40,772 nt of DNA, from positions 1-40,772 of the IMG/VR virus record IMGVR_UViG_3300028456_000002. One strand, given 5' to 3'. The notes beneath the pieces are model-generated. The model searched no databases. It saw only the letters and a list, made by a program, of their open reading frames with translations, and was not told the DNA's origin. Shown here piece by piece: positions 1,826 through 39,136 of this stretch (within the stretch, counting starts at the first letter, position 1; every line of letters begins with the position of its first letter). The DNA comes from a virus. Taxonomy: Duplodnaviria > Heunggongvirae > Uroviricota > Caudoviricetes. The position numbers and the translations under genes were made by a program.

Positions 1826-5226
<3,401 letters not shown>

Positions 5227-17579: not shown

Positions 17580-19674
17580 CCTCCGGAAGTCATCCAGGGG
17601 TTAACATCGTCAGTTACTGTTTTCTTCCGTTTTTGTTTTTTAACAGGCGTGGATACCGATTCCGGTGAGGGTGACGGTTCGATACTGTCCGGGACACACT
17701 CCAGCCATGTTTCCCGGCTCGCCCATTCCGGTGCATCCGGCCAGCGGATCTTTTCGTATCCATGCAGAATGACCAGAGCCTCGGCATACACCATCAGGTC
17801 AAAGGCTTCGTTGGCACCGCGACCCGGCTTACTCCATTTCCCGTCACTGCTCCGCTCTTCATACGTCAGTTCGTCGTAAAACCAGCTCCCCAGCCAGTCA
17901 GGGAAATGCACATAGCCTGGACCTGGCGAATCACGCCATAACGCGTTATTCACCCGGTCTTTCAGGGCATCCGTCTGAAGAAGCCAGAGCGGCACATCAC
18001 CTGCGGCCTGCGCCCGTCGGCCCGTTCGTCCGATGTTATCAGGGAATGTACGGGTGATCAGTTTTGCGCGCCGGATGCTGTCGCCCTTAAACAGGTAAAT
18101 ACGTTTACCAAGGCCATCACGACGGCAACGACGCCAGAATTTATAGGCATTATCAGTGACCCCGTCTTCACCGCCGGAGTCCACCGCCATTGCCATCAGT
18201 CGCATTTGTTGAGAAGGATCGGAGGCCAGCGGCCAGCTTTTATCAAAAAAACATCTGTCAGCAGGACATCCCAGTCTTCCGGATAGCTGGCCGGATCAAT
18301 TCGCTGGCTCTCCCCGTCGCTGTCACCGCGCAATGACTGCGTGATGTTGTAACGATCAATAATCCAGCGTTCGCCACGGCTGCCATAGCCCGTTACCTGA
18401 ACCACAAAACGGCGATGACGTCCCGCCTGCACATCAACTGTCGCCACTAGGAAATTAACGCCATCCGGCACACTGCGGGGAGGAACTGGCTCTGCTCGCT
18501 GCTCAAGCAGCTCACTTTTTCGTTGCTCCATGCTGGCGCGGGGAAGATAAGGTAATCCCCAGTCGGTATTGATAACCGTCTTGAGTGTTTCTTCACTTCC
18601 GGTTGTCTCGTATTCCTGTTCTGCAGTAAGCAGTTTGTAAACGAGTTGCGAGAGTGTCTGGTAAGCAGCTGCCGGACCCTCCATCCAGAATGACGCAATA
18701 CGTGAACGCCTGGGATCACCATAACGACTGCCATCCGCACTGATGGATTCACCATCCCGCAACCAGACCCCACGTCCGTTCAGCTCACGTTTTTGTTCAG
18801 GCATAATCCGTCCTGAACAGAAAGGACACTGAATATAAGCCGCCTCACTTGCCAGCACGGGATCGGCAATATCACGGAAACCAGCAACCACATCGCCGCA
18901 GGGCTGAAAATACTCACCACAGTGTGGACATGGCCAGTACCAGCGACGGCGATCACCACGGTTATAGAGCGACAGGATCCCCGTGGTTGGTGGAGCCTCA
19001 TGCGGTGAAGTCCGTCGCCATTTCACATCCTTCACATCCCTGCCGGGGGAACTCTCCACCAGCGTCATACCGCTGGACATAAATGTGGTGGTACGTTTTG
19101 AGGCAAGAGAGAAGGCATCCCCCTCGCCATCAATATCTTCCGGAAAACGGTCATAATCCGTCAGCGCGACGCATTTATAATCTGATGAGGACATGATATT
19201 GACTGACGGCCAGCCGATTTTCAGGTAGTTGCCAGCAAGGAATGTTCTGTCATAAACGTTGTTGTCATTTTTGTTCGGACTCAGGCGACTGACCACTTCC
19301 GGGCTGACGCGAAACGTTCTGGCGAGTCGTTTTTTGGAGTGTTCGCGGGCTTTTTCCTCTGTCATCTGAATGATCAGCATATCCGCAGGATCGCAAATCA
19401 CGTTGTAAATCACCCAGCCGTCAATCAGGCCGATAGTCTTGCCGGTTCGTGCCGGACCAACAAATATCACTGCGTCGTATTCACGCGAGGCCAGGCAGTT
19501 CATCGGCTCAATAACATACGGTGCCACCAGCGGATCCCACGGGACTGAGTTCCCGGCCCCCATGGGCACCCGCATATACTGAGCAACGGCATCAGCAACC
19601 CGCATTCGTCTCGGTGCGCGAAGGATATAACCTGAATCGGTTCGTGCTGCCTTTGCGGTTTCCTGATTCAGCAT
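17570..19674 (-). pseudogene. Terminase large subunit, split into two ORFs by a frameshift in a T7 run
   Basis: ORF 18196..19674 carries the N-terminal ATPase region (...WPCPHCGEYFQ... like lambda A); ORF 17570..18205 carries the C-terminal nuclease part. On the minus strand GATGTTTTTTTGATAAAAGC has 7 T; 8 T would give one continuous frame. Confidence 0.85.
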
Positions 19675-20168
19675 TACTCCTCCTGCTGTAATTCCTCCTC
19701 ATCATCCGCACCTGCTTCGGTCACCCGCAGGGCTATCTGATCGCGCAGATCATCAATAATGGACTGAACACGGCTCACAGCGGCAGGCTGCAGACCGCAG
19801 TCACGTTCCAGAATATCCGGTAATGTCTCCAGCACCTGCACGACCGCTTTTGCCCAGATGGCAAACTCCCGTCTGACATCACTGGCCGGAATGAGTTGTG
19901 CCGTTTCCTGTTCGAACTTAAGACGCTCACGTTCAGACTGATACCAGGCTTTGCGCTCATGCGCGTCCATTTCGCCTTCTGCAACCGGCGGTGGTAATGC
20001 CAGAAATGCCGACACAATATCAACCACCCGATAAAGCTTGAGGTTGCTTTCATGCCCCCCTGCAACGGGTAGATTTTGCAGCCTTGCCGCAGCAGTCTGG
20101 CGATGTACACCTGACAGTGCCGCCAGTTGACTGATATTCAGCGTCAGATTTTTTAACTCTCGATCCAT
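19674..20168 (-). CDS. Terminase small subunit
   Basis: 164 aa with N-terminal HTH-like segment (LNISQLAALSGVHRQTAAARL), acidic C-terminus; immediately upstream of the large subunit and downstream of cos. Confidence 0.75.
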   Translation of the reverse strand: MDRELKNLTLNISQLAALSGVHRQTAAARLQNLPVAGGHESNLKLYRVVDIVSAFLALPPPVAEGEMDAHERKAWYQSERERLKFEQETAQLIPASDVRREFAIWAKAVVQVLETLPDILERDCGLQPAAVSRVQSIIDDLRDQIALRVTEAGADDEEELQQEE

Positions 20169-22734: not shown

Positions 22735-22809
<75 letters not shown>

Positions 22810-22812
22810 ATA

Positions 22813-22888
<76 letters not shown>

Positions 22889-27122: not shown

Positions 27123-27383
27123 TTATTCTTCTGCAAAAGCAGAAAATCCAGCCTTAAGACCAATCTCTTTCAGAACCTGTAATGATGTTACAAATTCATC
27201 TTCACGCAAAATAAAACCGTCCGTCATAAGCTCATCAACAAAATAAATTAACACAGCTCCGCTCTTCCTTTGTTGAGATTGCAAACATTTAATTCGGCAG
27301 TGACTGGCTATAACTCCATTCTCAACGCGTACAGCATAGAGGCCATTTTCACTAAAAATTTCACAAAATTCTTCTATTTTCAT
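27123..27383 (-). CDS. Hypothetical acidic 86-aa protein in an AT-rich island (cargo candidate)
   Basis: MKIEEFCEIFSENGLYAVRVENGVIASHCRIK...; visibly AT-rich relative to flanks; AAGGA ribosome-binding site; own candidate promoter at 27466..27493. Confidence 0.55.
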   Translation of the reverse strand: MKIEEFCEIFSENGLYAVRVENGVIASHCRIKCLQSQQRKSGAVLIYFVDELMTDGFILREDEFVTSLQVLKEIGLKAGFSAFAEE

Positions 27384-27763: not shown

Positions 27764-27919
27764 TTACTCCTCAGATTCGTAAGCTGTGAAGACAGCGACC
27801 TCCGTCTGGCCGGTTCGGATTCGTACCTCGCAGAGGTCTTTCCTCGTTACCAGTGCCGTCACTATGACGGTTAAACAGATGACGATCAGGGCGATTAACA
27901 TCGCCTTTTGCTGCTTCAT
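27764..27919 (-). CDS. hok: Hok/Gef family type I toxin (HokD-like), inside an N-terminally extended mok frame 27764..27976
   Basis: MKQQKAMLIALIVICLTVIVTALVTRKDLCEVRIRTGQTEVAVFTAYESEE, 51 aa, single TM helix, near-identical to chromosomal Hok proteins; the 70-aa in-frame upstream extension corresponds to mok. Confidence 0.85.
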   Translation of the reverse strand: MKQQKAMLIALIVICLTVIVTALVTRKDLCEVRIRTGQTEVAVFTAYESEE

Positions 27920-28199
27920 AGCCTGCTTCTCCTTGCCTTTCGGCATGTAAGAGGCTAACCTACATGTGCAAAGCATGAAATTGGCCTCAGATTAATGTTA
28001 AGCGTCTTGCCGGACGCGTAATGTTAACTGGGGCTTTTCTCTATCTGCCGTTGGTGTTCATGCCTGAGACAGATAGCCTCAAGCACCCGCAGCAATTCTA
28101 CTTAACTATCCTTTTCCCGCAAATCGTTTTTATCCCCAGCGGCAAATCGAATACACCACCAGCGCCACTGCCATCGCGATTCCTACTGTTGTGAATGCC

Positions 28200-33559: not shown

Positions 33560-34082
33560 ACGAACCCCTGGCAGACATTTGTTTATCTGCAAAGTAATAT
33601 TGATATTGCTGACGATACGCATGCTTGAAAGCAATAGCTTTTTCTATAAGCTCGTCAGTCTCACGTTCCACAACAGATGGATCCGCAAAAAGCAGCCCAG
33701 ACTCCACCACATCGCCATATTCTTTGTTTAATCCGGCGATCATGTACGTAATGCTTTTTCCATCACTGATCTCACGATACAACCTGAAATCACTAATTCG
33801 GATAGCCTCCATAATTGCCGGAATCAGCGCCGTGAATTTTTTCCGCTTATCCCTGGTGTCGATAGCTTTCCAGCGTTCGAATATCTTCACCCGGTTAACG
33901 CCCAGCGCCCGTTGATCAACCTCGCCATCATTAAACGTGACGCGTTGAACATCGATGTTCGGGCGTTCTTTCAGAGCCCAGAATGCTTCCGTGATTAATA
34001 TCGTCGCCTGCTCCTGTGTCATTCCTGGTCGGCACACCCAGGCATCCAGAGCCTCACAAACCTGTTCAGGGGTGATTTTCAT
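33531..34082 (-). CDS. YdaT-like protein (cII-position gene)
   Basis: 183 aa immediately downstream of the Cro-like gene; resemblance to Rac YdaT is from memory only. Confidence 0.5.
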   Translation of the reverse strand: MKITPEQVCEALDAWVCRPGMTQEQATILITEAFWALKERPNIDVQRVTFNDGEVDQRALGVNRVKIFERWKAIDTRDKRKKFTALIPAIMEAIRISDFRLYREISDGKSITYMIAGLNKEYGDVVESGLLFADPSVVERETDELIEKAIAFKHAYRQQYQYYFADKQMSARGSYEYRCTTMG

Positions 34083-34293
34083 TGTTCAACCGCCCCGCCC
34101 GCTTTGCCTTACGATATTCGTCATAAACTTTGGGGTCGTACTGAAGTTCCCCGCCGGATGCCTCTTGCAGGCGCATCGCGCGACCTTCAGGAACCAATTC
34201 CCCCCATTGAGAAACAGCAGATGGATCAACACCAGCAGCTTTCGCTACTTTGGCTTTCGTCCCATAAAAATTAATTACGTCTGATTTAAACAT
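34066..34293 (-). CDS. dicC: DicC-like Cro-type regulator
   Basis: ORF 34066..34320; ...LVPEGRAMRLQEASGGELQYDPKVYDEYRK.KRAGRLNNENH matches DicC from memory; divergent from dicA. Confidence 0.8.
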   Translation of the reverse strand: MFKSDVINFYGTKAKVAKAAGVDPSAVSQWGELVPEGRAMRLQEASGGELQYDPKVYDEYRKAKRAGRLNNENHP

Positions 34294-34370
34294 CACCCCT
34301 CCAAAGTTGAGTTTTCTCAATAGTAATCACTCAAGGAATCTCAAGTCAAGGGTTATTAAGATATCTAAAT

Positions 34371-34778
34371 ATGAACGAGAAAACTTTAGGTCAACGAATT
34401 AGAGAAAGACGCAAACAGGTTGGTTTAAGTCAAAACGATTTAAGCAAAGCTGCTGGCGTATCTGGCTCATCAATTTCACTATGGGAAAGCGACCATACAG
34501 CCCCGCGCGGGCAAAATTTGCATCGCCTGGCTGAGGTATTGCAATGTTCACCAACTTGGATACTGTTTGGTGACGAGGATAAAACACCAGATCCACCAGT
34601 TGCACTCAACAGCGCCTTAGACTTATCGGAAGATGAGTTGGAGATGTTGCGATTGTATCGCGCACTTCCAAAATCAGAGCAGCAAGCACAAATCAGCGAA
34701 CTCCGTGCCCGCGTTGAGAATTTTAATCGCCTATTCACCGAGCTACTAGAAGCTCGCAAACGTAACAAACATCAATAA
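34371..34778 (+). CDS. dicA: DicA-like repressor (HTH, XRE family)
   Basis: 135 aa; ...NLHRLAEVLQCSPTWILFGDEDK... and ...ELRARVENFNRLFTELLEARKRNK closely match DicA from memory. Confidence 0.9.
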   Translation: MNEKTLGQRIRERRKQVGLSQNDLSKAAGVSGSSISLWESDHTAPRGQNLHRLAEVLQCSPTWILFGDEDKTPDPPVALNSALDLSEDELEMLRLYRALPKSEQQAQISELRARVENFNRLFTELLEARKRNKHQ

Positions 34779-34840
34779 CCCCCCTTCACAAATTTTAAAG
34801 CCTTACATTTCAATGTATTGGCTTTATTTTGCATTAAATA

Positions 34841-34897
34841 TTGAGTTTTCTCATTAAAAACACTTGACCAATTTTAATGAGAAAACTAAATTATCAT
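34841..34897 (+). promoter_or_regulatory. Promoter of the dicB operon with a perfect 16-bp inverted-repeat operator
   Basis: GAGTTTTCTCATTAAAA, 13-bp spacer containing TTGACC, TTTTAATGAGAAAACT; candidate -10 TAAATT 17 nt after TTGACC. Confidence 0.55.
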
Positions 34898-34969
34898 ACA
34901 TCAAGACACCGCACGGTGTTCTCAGCAAACAGTTCCGCTACCCCGGCGTTAAGGGGAAATGAGGTCAGC

Positions 34970-35125
34970 ATGGATACTATCGCTCTTGGCAACAGCGAAT
35001 CTCTGGTATGTGGCGTGTTCCCCAACCAGGACGGCACGTTCACCGCGATGACGTATACCAAAAGCAAAACGTTTAAAACCGAAAATGGTGCCCGTCGCTG
35101 GCTGGAAAGAAACTCAGGTGAGTGA
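34970..35125 (+). CDS. ydfA: YdfA-like small protein
   Basis: MDTIALGNSESLVCGVFPNQDGTFTAMTYTKSKTFKTENGARRWLERNSGE, 51 aa, inside ORF 34877..35125. Confidence 0.7.
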   Translation: MDTIALGNSESLVCGVFPNQDGTFTAMTYTKSKTFKTENGARRWLERNSGE

Positions 35126-35126
35126 T

Positions 35127-35702
35127 ATGGATTTCGACACAATCATGGAAAAGGCTTACGAAGAATACTTCGAAGGCCTTGCCGAAGGCGAAGAAGCTCT
35201 CAGCTTCAGTGAGTTTAAACAGGCACTCAGAATAAGAATGTGCTCTCACAATGACGCAGAGCACAAATATGAGAAGCAAAATCAGACCGCAGAAAATTTT
35301 GTTCTGGAACCCGGAGAAACGCTTTTCAAAATTCCCGTTACGTGCCCCATTTGCGGTTTTACATCAGAAGAACTTGACGACTCCTGTAACAATCAGGAAA
35401 CAACCAAGTATGTCGAAGATGATACCGAGTGCGCACGAAGAACGATTATATCCACGAGTCCAAACTCCAGGACCAATAAATCTCACTTTGAGAGGGTGAT
35501 TAATCCACTCCCCCAAACCAATAAAAAAGATGCCGGAGGACAAAAAACCCAATGGAACAACGGGATATCTGTCAAAAAAAGACGTTCCATTAAAGACAAA
35601 CAACGCAGCGCCAACAACTGTAAGCGCTTTATACCAGTAATCAATTTTCATGTTCTTAAGCGGATTTATTGGTGGTTGCGACATTGCTTAATGAATCCTT
35701 AA
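35127..35702 (+). CDS. Hypothetical protein with zinc-ribbon motif (YdfB/YdfC-position ORF)
   Basis: Start taken at MDFDTIMEKAYEEYFEGLAEGEE...; contains CPICGF; track ORF 35085..35702. Confidence 0.5.
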   Translation: MDFDTIMEKAYEEYFEGLAEGEEALSFSEFKQALRIRMCSHNDAEHKYEKQNQTAENFVLEPGETLFKIPVTCPICGFTSEELDDSCNNQETTKYVEDDTECARRTIISTSPNSRTNKSHFERVINPLPQTNKKDAGGQKTQWNNGISVKKRRSIKDKQRSANNCKRFIPVINFHVLKRIYWWLRHCLMNP

Positions 35703-35941
35703 AACTGTGGTGATTTTAAGGATACCACCTCGCCTGACGTGGTTAAAAGCAGGCACACAACACGAAAGCGCACGGCGAAGTTCGTCTCACTGTACTGTGT
35801 CGTTAAATTTAATTCGACCGTGCGCTTCCGGTTGTGGCAACCCGCGAAATGGCGCGGCGGTAAGTATGGCGGGGTTATTCCTTCCCCGTTGAGGACACCG
35901 AGTTGTCAGGTTGACCATACGCTTAAGTGACAACCCCGCTG

Positions 35942-36002
35942 CAACAACCCATGTTGATTACCTTTTGGCGGGTATCCGTTTTTTGTTTTCCCTTGTGATC
36001 CC
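35942..36002 (+). ncRNA. dicF: DicF-like small RNA (divergent) ending in an intrinsic terminator
   Basis: TTTGGCGGGTATCC...GATCCCCGCCCTTTTT resembles K-12 DicF (UUUGGCGGUAUCAG...CUGCCGCCCUUUUU, from memory) in position and 3' hairpin; lies just upstream of dicB. Boundaries approximate. Confidence 0.45.
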
Positions 36003-36195
36003 CGCCCTTTTTAAAGTGAATTTTGTGATGCGGTGAATGCGGCTCAGCGCACGCGGAACAGTTAAAAAGGCCAGTTGACTTCCGTATTGGTTCTTATGGG
36101 TGGGTTCTCTGTATCCGGCGTTAATTGTTAACTGGTTAACGTCACCTGGAGGCACCAGGCACCGTATCACAAAATTCATTGTTGAGGACGCGATA

Positions 36196-36384
36196 ATGGA
36201 AACGTTATTACCAAACGTTAATACGTCTGAAGGTTGTTTTGAAATTGGTGTCAAAATCAGTAACCCTGCATTTACTGAAGATGCCATTAATAAGAGAAAA
36301 CACGAACGGGAGCTATTAAATCAAATATGCATTGTTTCAATGCTGGCCCGTTTACGTCTGATGCAAAAAGGATGCTGGCAATGA
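36196..36384 (+). CDS. dicB: Cell division inhibitor DicB
   Basis: METLLPNVNTSEGCFEIGVKISNPAFTEDAINKRKHERELLNQICIVSMLARLRLMQKGCWQ, 62 aa, near-identical to K-12 DicB from memory. Confidence 0.9.
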   Translation: METLLPNVNTSEGCFEIGVKISNPAFTEDAINKRKHERELLNQICIVSMLARLRLMQKGCWQ

Positions 36385-36584
36385 ATACAGCATTTGCACT
36401 CGTTCTGACAGTTTTTCTTAATACTGGCGAGCCTGTTGATCTGGTTATTGACATTTACGGTTCAATGAAAGAATGCACGGCTGCCGCAGCGGAACAGAAA
36501 ATTCCCGGCAACTGTTATCCGGTTGATAAAGTTATTCACATGGACAATAACGAAATCCCGGCGGGACTTAAAACAGCACCGTAA
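36381..36584 (+). CDS. ydfD: YdfD-like small protein (reported host-lysis function)
   Basis: MNTAFALVLTVFLNTGEPVDLVIDIYGSMKECTAAAAEQKIPGNCYPVDKVIHMDNNEIPAGLKTAP; start overlaps dicB stop (ATGA). Confidence 0.75.
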   Translation: MNTAFALVLTVFLNTGEPVDLVIDIYGSMKECTAAAAEQKIPGNCYPVDKVIHMDNNEIPAGLKTAP

Positions 36585-36664: not shown

Positions 36665-39136
36665 ATGAGTAAAGTCTTTATTTGCGCCGCCATTCCGGAC
36701 GAACAGGCAATTAAGGAAGAAGGTGCAGTTGCTGTAGCCACTGCCATCGAAGCCGGTGACGAACGCCGCGCCCGTGCCAAATTTATCTGGCAATTCCTGG
36801 AGCAATATCCGGCTGCTCAGGACTGCGCTTATAAATTTCTTGTCTGCGAGGATAAACCCGGCATGCCCCGCCCTGCCATCGACACCTGGGATACCGAATA
36901 TATGCAGGAAAACCGCTGGGATGAGGAATCCGCTTCCTTTGTTCCGGTCGAACCAGAATCCGCTCCGATGAACGTCAATTTTGACAAGCTGTCCCTTGAA
37001 GTACAGAACGCGGTCCTGGTTAAGTTCGGTACATGTGAAAACATCACCGTTGATATGGCGATTGACGCGCAGGAATTACTGCAGGAAGACGTTGCTACCT
37101 TTGACGGGCATATCGTTGAAGCACTGATAAAAACGCCTGAAATTAACGCTATGTATCCGGAACGCAAACTGTTCGCTATCGGTTGGGTTAAACACAAATG
37201 TAATCCGGGTGCCAAATGGCCCGAAATTCAGGCTGAATTACGTAACTGGAAAAAACGGCAGGACGCAGAGCGCAAAGAGACTGGAAAATATACTTCTGTT
37301 GTTGATCTCGCCCGCGCCAGAGTCAACCGACAGCACACTGAAAACTCAGCAGCAAAAATCAACCCTGTCACTGCTGCCATTCGTCGCGAATACAAGCAGA
37401 CATGGAAAACACTGGATGAAGAACTGGCCTACGCTCTCTGGCCTGGTGATATTGATGCCGGAAACATTGACGGCAGCATCCATCGCTGGGCAAAAAATGA
37501 AGTTATCGACAAAGATCGCGAAGACTGGAAGCGTATTTCCGCATCAATGCGCAAACAACCTGATGCCGTTCGCTACGACCGTCAGACTATTTTTGGCCTT
37601 GTCCGTGAACGTCCCATCGACATTCATAAAGATCCTGTGGCGCTGAACAAATACATCACCGAATACCTGACTACAAAGGGCGTGTTTGAAGATGAAGGAA
37701 CAAATCAGAGCACAACTAATACTCTCCCGTCGCCAGTACCAGAAGCTGATGCAGTGGAAACGGCAATTCCGGACAACGAAAAAACCGAATGCAAAGTGGA
37801 AGACGAACCATCTGTAGAGCGTGAGGGGCCGTTCTACTTCCTTTTCACCGATAAGGATGGCGAAAAATATGGTCGTGCAAACAAACTTTCTGGTCTGAAT
37901 AAGGCGCTGGCTGCAGGGGCTACTGAAATCACGAAAGAAGAATATTTTGCCCGCAAAAACGGCACATACTCAGGTTCACAACAAAATACTGGTGCATCTG
38001 ACACGATCGCACAACCAGAGCCGGTAAAAGTTACCGCTGACGAAGTAAACAGAATTATGCAGGCAGCCAATATCAGCCAGCCTGACGCCGATGAACTTCT
38101 TGCAGTATCACGTGGTGAATTTGTTGCAGGGATTAGCGATCCGAATGATCCGAAATGGGTGAAGGGGATTGAAACCCGCGATTCTGTGAACCAGAACCAG
38201 CAAGAAACGGAACAGAACGACCAGAAAGCGGAACAAAACAGCCCAAATACGCAACAAAACGAGCCAGAAACGAAACAACCTGAACCAGTAGTGCAACAGG
38301 AACCGGAAAAGACCTGCACCGCCTGCGGTCAGAGCGGTGGCGGCAACTGCCCTGATTGTGGTGCGGTGATGGGTGACGCAACATACCAGGAAATATTCGA
38401 TGGAGAGAATCAGCCTGAAGTTCAGGAAAATGATCCGGAGGAAATGGAAGGCACTGCGCATCAGCACAAGGAGAACACTGGCGGCAATCAGCATCATGCC
38501 AGCGATAGTGAAACTGGCGAGGCGTCAGATCCCTTAATTAAGGCGAACGGTCATTATAATCTCACATCCACCAGCAGAGCGGGAATTCATCTGATGATCG
38601 ACCTTGAAACCATGGGAAAAAATCCCGATGCCCCGATTATCTCAATAGGCGCAATATTTTTCGATCCACAAACCGGAGATATGGGACCGGAATTTAGCAA
38701 GACCATCGATCTGGATACTGCTGGCGGAGTCATTGATCGTGACGTCATTAAATGGTGGCTGAAGCAATCACGTGAAGCGCAGTCTGCCATTATGACCGAT
38801 GAAATCCCGTTAGATGATGCACTACTGCAATTGCGGGAATTTATCGCCGAAAACTCCGGTGAGTTTTTTGTTCAGGTCTGGGGAAATGGAGCCAACTTCG
38901 ACAACACGATTTTGCGCCGTTCATACGAACGGCAGGGGATCCCCTGCCCGTGGCGTTACTACAACGATCGCGATGTACGCACAATCGTTGAGCTGGGGAA
39001 AGCCATAGACTTCGATGCCAGAACTGCTATCCCATTCGAAGGTGAGCGCCATAATGCACTTGATGACGCTCGTTACCAGGCAAAATACGTTTCAGCTATC
39101 TGGCAAAAACTGATCCCGAGTCAGGCTGATTTTTAA
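36665..39136 (+). CDS. Large exonuclease: YdfE/RecE-like N-terminal and linker regions fused to a C-terminal DnaQ-like 3'-5' exonuclease domain
   Basis: 823 aa. C-terminus has DEDDh motifs (HLMIDLETMG; WGNGANFDNTIL; HNALDDARY). Central Gln/Glu/Asn-rich linker and zinc-ribbon CTACGQSGGGNCPDCG. Confidence 0.75.
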   Translation: MSKVFICAAIPDEQAIKEEGAVAVATAIEAGDERRARAKFIWQFLEQYPAAQDCAYKFLVCEDKPGMPRPAIDTWDTEYMQENRWDEESASFVPVEPESAPMNVNFDKLSLEVQNAVLVKFGTCENITVDMAIDAQELLQEDVATFDGHIVEALIKTPEINAMYPERKLFAIGWVKHKCNPGAKWPEIQAELRNWKKRQDAERKETGKYTSVVDLARARVNRQHTENSAAKINPVTAAIRREYKQTWKTLDEELAYALWPGDIDAGNIDGSIHRWAKNEVIDKDREDWKRISASMRKQPDAVRYDRQTIFGLVRERPIDIHKDPVALNKYITEYLTTKGVFEDEGTNQSTTNTLPSPVPEADAVETAIPDNEKTECKVEDEPSVEREGPFYFLFTDKDGEKYGRANKLSGLNKALAAGATEITKEEYFARKNGTYSGSQQNTGASDTIAQPEPVKVTADEVNRIMQAANISQPDADELLAVSRGEFVAGISDPNDPKWVKGIETRDSVNQNQQETEQNDQKAEQNSPNTQQNEPETKQPEPVVQQEPEKTCTACGQSGGGNCPDCGAVMGDATYQEIFDGENQPEVQENDPEEMEGTAHQHKENTGGNQHHASDSETGEASDPLIKANGHYNLTSTSRAGIHLMIDLETMGKNPDAPIISIGAIFFDPQTGDMGPEFSKTIDLDTAGGVIDRDVIKWWLKQSREAQSAIMTDEIPLDDALLQLREFIAENSGEFFVQVWGNGANFDNTILRRSYERQGIPCPWRYYNDRDVRTIVELGKAIDFDARTAIPFEGERHNALDDARYQAKYVSAIWQKLIPSQADF

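Follow-up and report, generated by a model that had tools for sequence, protein, structure and literature searches.

A dicB-ydfD pair in the early operon of a Qin/mEp460-type prophage, with a small-RNA cassette other than DicF upstream

The dicB-ydfD pair and its regulatory region

We analyzed a dicB-ydfD gene pair carried by a virus of the class Caudoviricetes (IMG/VR record IMGVR_UViG_3300028456_000002), using a stretch of 40,772 nucleotides (nt; positions 1 to 40,772 of the record) that we call the window. The window is a lambdoid prophage, and its morphogenesis genes share 97% identity with those of phage mEp460. Its sequence places it among prophages of the Qin/mEp460 type, with dicB and ydfD in the early-left (PL-type) operon. 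The features of this operon and of its regulators are collected in Table 1. As a first-pass annotation of the DNA had reported, dicB and a ydfD-family gene are both intact and joined by an ATGA stop/start overlap, which we confirmed by direct reading of the sequence and by full-length matches of both products to Pfam families.

Table 1. Features of the dicB-ydfD operon and its regulators (window positions; aa, amino acids)
Feature	Position	Strand	Details and basis
Rem-like antirepressor	27123..27383	-	86 aa; 69% identical to K-12 Rem; list of open reading frames
Cro/DicC-like regulator	34066..34293	-	75 aa; Pfam P22_Cro, E = 1.4e-17; 71% identical to K-12 DicC
Third operator copy, putative	34307-34322		16-mer TTGAGTTTTCTCAATA over the cro-side promoter; repeat search
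DicA-family repressor	34371..34778	+	135 aa; NCBIfam DicA, Pfam HTH_3
Two inverted 20-nt operator arms, putative	34840-34859, 34872-34891		Bracket the -35 hexamer and cover the -10 hexamer; repeat search
PL/dicBp-type promoter, predicted	34864..34892	+	TTGACC-17-TAAATT; promoter scan
ydfA (DUF1391)	34970..35125	+	First gene of the operon; Pfam DUF1391; 94% identical to K-12 YdfA
ydfB remnant	35127..35228	+	First 34 codons only; tblastn with K-12 proteins
Gene for a 106-aa hydrophobic protein	35364..35684	-	Antisense inside the operon, between promoter and dicB
Small-RNA cassette, not DicF	35946..36012	+	Hairpin arms 35967-35976 and 35997-36006; T5 at 36008-36012
Conserved untranslated spacer and dicB leader	36013..36195	+	Includes dicB Shine-Dalgarno GAGGA, 36184-36188
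dicB	36196..36384	+	62 codons; ATG 36196, TGA 36382-36384; direct reading and list of open reading frames
Shine-Dalgarno-like AAGGA	36368..36372	+	Inside the dicB coding sequence, 8 nt 5' of the ydfD ATG
ATGA stop/start overlap, dicB/ydfD	36381..36384	+	Direct reading; same in K-12
ydfD-family gene (DUF1482)	36381..36584	+	67 codons; ATG 36381, TAA 36582-36584
Exonuclease gene	36665..39136	+	823 aa; next operon gene after ydfD; intact form of the K-12 ydfE pseudogene

The dicB product matches the Pfam family PF05358 over its whole length (1-62 of 62, E = 1.9e-38, 130.4 bits against a gathering score of 27), scores 133.5 bits with the NCBIfam DicB model NF049927 (cutoff 100), and is identical to K-12 DicB at 55 of 62 residues (89%). 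Its start is an internal, in-phase ATG of a reading frame already open from position 36100, and the GAGGA listed in Table 1 lies 7 nt before it. The gene stands after the terminator of the dicF site and before ydfD, in synteny with K-12 and phage Tritos. The exact 62-residue protein is already in NCBI, on 19 contigs, under the name "cell division inhibition protein DicB".

The 67-residue product of the second gene matches the full length of the Pfam family DUF1482 (PF07358; 1-57 of 57, E = 4.4e-22, 78.2 bits against a gathering score of 25) and of phrog_1092 (1-63 of 63). It is identical to the YdfD of one K-12 MG1655 record at 44 of 63 residues and 71% identical to the reference MG1655 YdfD. 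The protein ends in GLKTAP: a 1-nt difference immediately ahead of the stop codon used in K-12 gives it four more residues (KTAP) than the 63-residue K-12 YdfD, and it lacks the K-12-type end with Leu63 as the last residue. The N-terminus is hydrophobic (mean Kyte-Doolittle hydropathy of 2.0 over residues 1-13), and cysteines C32 and C45 are present. Both cysteines, the hydrophobic N-terminus, and a EQKIPGNCYPVDKVIH core are conserved among DUF1482 alleles. The exact 67-residue protein occurs on 223 contigs, where NCBI names it only "DUF1482 family protein". Neither DicB nor the YdfD-family protein matched a defence system in PADLOC.

To place the pair in a wider set, we used 90 loci consisting of the window, K-12, phage Tritos, seven species-representative genomes, and 80 IMG/VR contigs. 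Of these, 85 have the ATGA junction, and in 83 a full-length ydfD (62-69 residues) follows it; the four commonest junction contexts, which together account for 81 loci, are headed by the AAAAGGA form of the Shine-Dalgarno sequence. The product of ydfD falls into two main length classes, the 63-residue form (41/90) and the 67-residue form (39/90). Among the distinct alleles at these loci, the pairwise ratio of nonsynonymous to synonymous substitution rates (dN/dS) is 0.23 for ydfD and 0.34 for dicB, the conservation of dicB being somewhat inflated because the loci were picked by DicB similarity. Both genes are under purifying selection and so are kept as proteins.

The pair is already known and is ordinary in Escherichia coli prophages: matches to a 961-bp region around it occur in 4740 of 5426 complete E. 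coli genomes, at a median of two places per genome. It is a well-studied Qin-type module in its usual form, with both exact proteins already catalogued, and the mildly new points of the window all lie outside it, in a cassette that replaces DicF, an antisense gene, and frameshifts in structural genes.

The predicted promoter of the operon is the only sigma-70-like site that the promoter scan found on the plus strand between 34000 and 36800, and a divergent site on the cro side lies at 34349-34320. Its -35 hexamer and the whole transcribed leader (70 nt) are nearly identical to K-12 dicBp. Putative operators, repeats of 16-20 nt with the consensus TTGAGTTTTCTCAATA, overlap the hexamers of both the PL-like and the cro-side promoter, whereas K-12 has wholly different DicA operator repeats at the same positions. 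The adjoining repressor matches the NCBIfam DicA model NF007257 from end to end (1-135 of 135, 238.3 bits against a cutoff of 101); Pfam finds only helix-turn-helix (HTH) families in it and no S24 peptidase domain. It is 56% identical to K-12 DicA, with the differences mostly in the DNA-binding half. Since the operator sequence and the repressor N-terminus both differ from K-12, the sequences describe a DicA-type immunity region with a specificity distinct from that of K-12. In the known system dicBp is repressed by DicA, and Rem relieves the repression (PMC10448788). The DicA-controlled promoter proposed at first pass is a fair description in kind, given the putative operators at 34840-34891 and the DicA-family repressor next to them.

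The closest known system is the dicBF operon of Qin in K-12 (ydfA-ydfB-ydfC-dicF-dicB-ydfD-ydfE, transcribed from dicBp and governed by DicA, DicC, and Rem), with which the window shares gene order, strand logic, the ATGA junction, and regulators of the DicA, DicC, and Rem families. It differs from Qin in the operators, the repressor N-terminus, the end of ydfB together with ydfC, the DicF core, and the length of YdfD; its exonuclease, putative xis, and int are intact, and for the exonuclease K-12 keeps only an IS2-truncated pseudogene (ydfE). Free phages also carry the 5.2-kb region that runs from the end of cII through cro, the repressor gene, ydfA, dicB, and ydfD to the exonuclease gene, at 90-92% identity over 88-100% of its length. 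HannyBb and mEp460_ev081 carry this early region at 90-92%, and Tritos and PhiR42_1 match it with partial coverage. mEp460_ev081 is a functional phage with dicB, dicF, dicAC, and rem (PMC10448788). The annotation of Tritos gives the order dicF, dicB, ydfD, exonuclease, xis, int, as in the window, although Tritos has a canonical DicF and the window does not.

The small RNA at the dicF position

The first-pass annotation had placed a DicF-like RNA upstream of dicB and had counted it among three intact kil functions. By its sequence, this RNA is not DicF. The Rfam DicF family (RF00039) has no match in the window at its gathering score (48 bits) and none at E <= 10 between 35600 and 36300; as a positive control, the same model scores 76.7 bits on K-12. 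DicF pairs with xylR through its 5' seed UUCUGGUGACG and with the ftsZ ribosome-binding site through its loop AGUUUUACUCCGUGACUG (PMC5069750). Neither the seed nor the loop has a match anywhere in the window, even with up to three mismatches. The statement that all three functions are intact therefore fails for the RNA.

What occupies the position is a cassette that sits between the ydfABC side of the operon and dicB, as DicF does. Alignment to K-12 shows a core of about 60 nt replaced between near-identical flanks. The GC-rich hairpin of the cassette (35967-36006; -17 kcal/mol, z = -3.2) is of the Rho-independent terminator type and is followed by the run of five T. The cassette occurs in about 205 of the 5426 E. 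coli genomes (~4%), without an annotated feature among the matches listed. Among the 90 surveyed loci it is found in 7 and canonical DicF in 50; the other loci have at least four further cassettes or none, with 5' and loop modules mixed, so that there are at least five cassette types overall.

Comparison of these sequences suggests that the alternative cassettes may have their flanks and a terminator hairpin in common and differ in the single-stranded 5' part and the loop. We tentatively suggest that the dicF position is a swappable slot for small RNAs and that the cassette in the window would be a distinct Hfq-type regulator, with targets unlike those of DicF and probably not including ftsZ, but we consider this rather doubtful. 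If it were so, DicB would be the only source of division arrest in such prophages, and the RNA would act to rewire other genes of the host. Annotation based on position would in any case miscall the RNA as DicF and lead to a wrong prediction of post-transcriptional ftsZ repression.

Folding calculations added little to these comparisons. On the ftsZ leader, the dimer-minus-monomer energy is -6.5 kcal/mol for the cassette and -16.3 kcal/mol for DicF, which is a weak test, as DicF itself lies at the 16th percentile of shuffled sequences. RNAduplex predictions of DicF and the variant against ftsZ were uninformative, shuffled sequences scoring equally well. Consensus folding of eight cassette variants suffered from a poor alignment and yielded one compensatory pair only, and we did not use it as evidence.

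The untranslated sequences on either side of the cassette (35826-35945 and 36006-36065, plus strand) hardly differ between the window and K-12, and their conservation over 76 distinct loci exceeds that of much of ydfD. No Rfam family matches 35826-35945. These flanks may correspond to the substrate that RNase III/E is known to process in K-12. The spacer and leader between the cassette and dicB are likewise mostly conserved over the 76 distinct sequences, apart from one variable stretch at 36066-36095. Across the spacer from the cassette into dicB (36005-36228, plus strand) there is also a match to the Rfam family STnc100 that stays below threshold (34 bits, where the gathering score is 47) and scores equally in K-12; this suggests from sequence similarity that this Salmonella small-RNA family is homologous to the dicB leader.

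Function of the pair

DicB acts through MinC and ManYZ, and through ManYZ it confers about 100-fold resistance to lambda and 434, protecting against ManYZ-dependent phages (PMC6832061). For YdfD, one study of the K-12 protein describes lysis of dividing cells when YdfD is over-produced alone and loss of this lysis when DicB or SulA is coexpressed (PMC8835842). The same study reports that YdfD binds IspG and acts as an IspG inhibitor (PMC8835842).

The explanation that we favor, and consider probable, is that DicB and the 67-residue YdfD-family protein are products of the early-left operon of a Qin/mEp460-type prophage and would arrest host cell division in early lytic development. In a lysogen, the repressor would keep the operon off, as in K-12. 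On derepression, transcripts would read through the antisense gene and the cassette terminator into dicB, ydfD, and the genes for exonuclease, Xis, and integrase. DicB would bind MinC, take it to ZipA at mid-cell, and block Z-ring formation (PMC6832061, PMC10448788), and would also block the DNA entry of ManYZ-dependent phages. The YdfD-like product would be a small membrane-associated protein that lyses dividing cells if made alone. Because DicB suppresses YdfD lysis, we propose that the ATGA overlap ensures joint synthesis, most likely so that YdfD is made only together with DicB and not alone.

Under this mechanism the pair would arrest division during early lytic development and not simply kill the host. 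The label of a host-killing module, given to the pair at first pass, is over-stated, since in K-12 DicB abolishes YdfD lysis (PMC8835842), the toxicity of the operon has been attributed to dicF plus dicB, not to ydfD (PMC5069750), and DicB has a protective effect against ManYZ-dependent phages (PMC6832061). By analogy with K-12, a more fitting description of the pair would be a division-arrest module of the early operon that includes a masked lysis factor.

Other phages offer partial parallels. Lambda Kil and Rac KilR are also small proteins of a repressor-controlled early-left operon that block FtsZ ring assembly and cause filamentation in lytic development (PMC3961180). They have no sequence similarity to DicB and no overlapping lysis-gene partner, and Kil inhibits FtsZ assembly itself in a ZipA-dependent manner, whereas DicB works through MinC. 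Like phiX174 E, Qbeta A2, and phage M LysM, small proteins that act against the synthesis of envelope precursors, YdfD is reported to lyse growing or dividing cells through starvation of wall synthesis (PMC8835842). It differs from these single-gene lysis proteins in its proposed target, IspG, in isoprenoid synthesis, in having its lysis masked by the upstream neighbor, and in belonging to the early operon of a tailed phage that has a holin-endolysin cassette too.

Several observations weigh against the explanation of division arrest by a coupled pair. The functions assigned to the allele in the window are carried over from work on K-12, and the attribution of operon toxicity to dicF plus dicB leaves ydfD out. 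By sequence comparison about 30% of the positions in the YdfD allele diverge from K-12 YdfD, in addition to its four extra C-terminal residues, and deletion or change of the terminal residue of K-12 YdfD makes it no longer lethal on plates (PMC8835842). Transcripts must cross both the terminator at 35967-36012 and the antisense gene at 35364-35684 between promoter and dicB. At the junction of the two genes there is no significant RNA structure that would enforce coupling: only a weak hairpin covers the Shine-Dalgarno sequence and the start codon, no better than shuffled sequences (z = +0.3 to +0.8). Because ydfD has its own Shine-Dalgarno sequence, independent initiation is possible.

The last two points are also what recommends reading the ATGA overlap as genome compaction only: ydfD would be initiated at its own Shine-Dalgarno sequence, and the amount made would not depend on translation of dicB. 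We give this alternative a substantial, if minority, chance. The AAGGA upstream of ydfD is conserved, and with the junction folding no better than shuffles nothing obviously sequesters the start site. Compaction accounts less well for the retention of the overlap in 85 of the 90 loci, among alleles that differ at up to ~35% of ydfD synonymous sites, and overlapping stop and start codons often support reinitiation. Translational coupling of dicB and ydfD, as judged from the overlap only, is plausible. Should the coupling be real, YdfD may have been lowered as well in published dicB deletions, a caveat for the phenotypes described for them. A separate doubt concerns the lysis function: the 67-residue DUF1482 allele may be no lysis protein, leaving DicB as the sole active effector and the "kil" functions of both the RNA and YdfD inapplicable. 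The divergence of the allele (~70% identity to K-12 YdfD), its KTAP tail, the sensitivity of K-12 lethality on plates to single-residue C-terminal changes (PMC8835842), and the bare database name "DUF1482 family protein" would all agree with this. We nevertheless consider it unlikely, as the match spans all of DUF1482, alleles keep the hydrophobic N-terminus, the two cysteines, and the EQKIPGNCYPVDKVIH core, and the 67-residue form is as common as the 63-residue form and is under purifying selection.

It is also conceivable that host protection, in superinfection exclusion and stress, is the main reason why a decaying prophage retains the pair, with low-level DicB blocking ManYZ-dependent entry and YdfD as a passenger or modulator. 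The ~100-fold resistance that DicB confers (PMC6832061) and the retention of the operon in most E. coli genomes, often in several copies, would fit such a role, as would the purifying selection on dicB and ydfD and the contrast between frameshifted terS, terL, and J and an early-left operon without frameshifts. However, the module is also found in plaque-forming phages and so serves the phage too (PMC10448788), and the frameshifts may be sequencing errors. We regard host protection as the main role as a reasonable possibility, although not the probable one; it is compatible with arrest of division in early lytic development, the two not being mutually exclusive. That the two open reading frames are chance open frames in a noncoding stretch has nothing but their small size in its favor and is refuted by profile hidden Markov model E-values of 1e-38 and 1e-22, dN/dS well below 1, and exact matches to hundreds of database entries; we give it practically no credence.

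Other operon genes and the state of the prophage

Between the promoter and dicB, the operon departs from K-12 downstream of ydfA. Searches with K-12 proteins (tblastn) found no ydfC in the operon. In a genome 92.8% identical, the Prokaryotic Genome Annotation Pipeline (PGAP) calls the stretch equivalent to our ydfB remnant a ydfB pseudogene. The K-12 ydfB C-terminus and ydfC are replaced by the segment that bears the antisense open reading frame for a protein of 106 residues. This frame is, from its sequence relatives, a real gene, since about 60 homologues match it over about the full length (34-58% identity) in distant genera, including Yersinia, Herminiimonas, and Reinekea, as well as in metagenomes. 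The protein has no match in Pfam, PHROG, NCBIfam, or PADLOC. On the plus strand of the same segment, an open reading frame of 205 residues (phrog_35040, annotated in HannyBb) is probably spurious, an antisense shadow fused to the ydfB start. We had attempted to determine the coding strand of 35230-35700 by codon-position analysis, which failed as all loci with the segment are more than 99.5% identical; the protein homology search resolved the strand.

We also considered an antiterminator of the HK022 put type, which could carry transcription past the terminator, in the very conserved leader at 34905-34969 or in 35800-35945, and rejected it when alignment to HK022 putL proved no better than with shuffled sequences. 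The fold of 35790-35950 is likewise no better than shuffles (z = -0.4).

Downstream of the pair, the exonuclease has a C-terminal Rv2179c-like DEDDh 3'-5' exonuclease domain (Pfam, E = 8e-66) and matches phrog_2082 from 1 to 823 of 823. It is followed by an open reading frame of 83 residues, in the position of the excisionase of phage Tritos, and an integrase of 431 residues. The plus strand of this end of the prophage thus reads DicA-family repressor, ydfA, ydfB remnant, small-RNA site, dicB, ydfD, exonuclease, 83-residue frame, integrase. On the minus strand, the tail, head, and terminase genes occupy 1-20.2 kb and are followed by lysis genes, two transfer RNA genes, and a methylase gene, then by genes for Q, a YdfU-like protein, the Rem homologue, hokD/sok, a lambda-P-like protein, an O-like protein with a DnaT domain, and the cII-like and Cro/DicC-like proteins.

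A full set of replication and structural modules had been credited to the prophage. Replication holds up, with O- and P-like genes alongside Q and int, but the structural set does not, as terS, terL, and J are frameshifted. Compared with mEp460, terS has a 1-nt insertion in an A-run near 20154 that breaks the frame. The terL gene, which encodes 700 residues in mEp460, is split by a 2-nt insertion in a T-run (~18244-18250) into open reading frames of 492 and 211 residues, and J has at least six single-nt indels (~3764-4888) that leave four fragments. The portal, protease/capsid, tape measure, and other tail genes are full length by the same comparison, and the early-left operon has no frame breaks. 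The frameshifts reflect either a decaying prophage or an error-rich assembly, and with terS, terL, and J affected, inducibility of the prophage should not be taken for granted.

Two further loci lie along the minus strand. The hokD/sok toxin-antitoxin locus (27767-28088) adjoins the Rem-like gene, as in Qin, with sok scoring 112 bits and HokD 98% identical. Two adjacent phage-borne transfer RNA genes (22738-22888) separate the lysis region from the genes for the methylase and Q.

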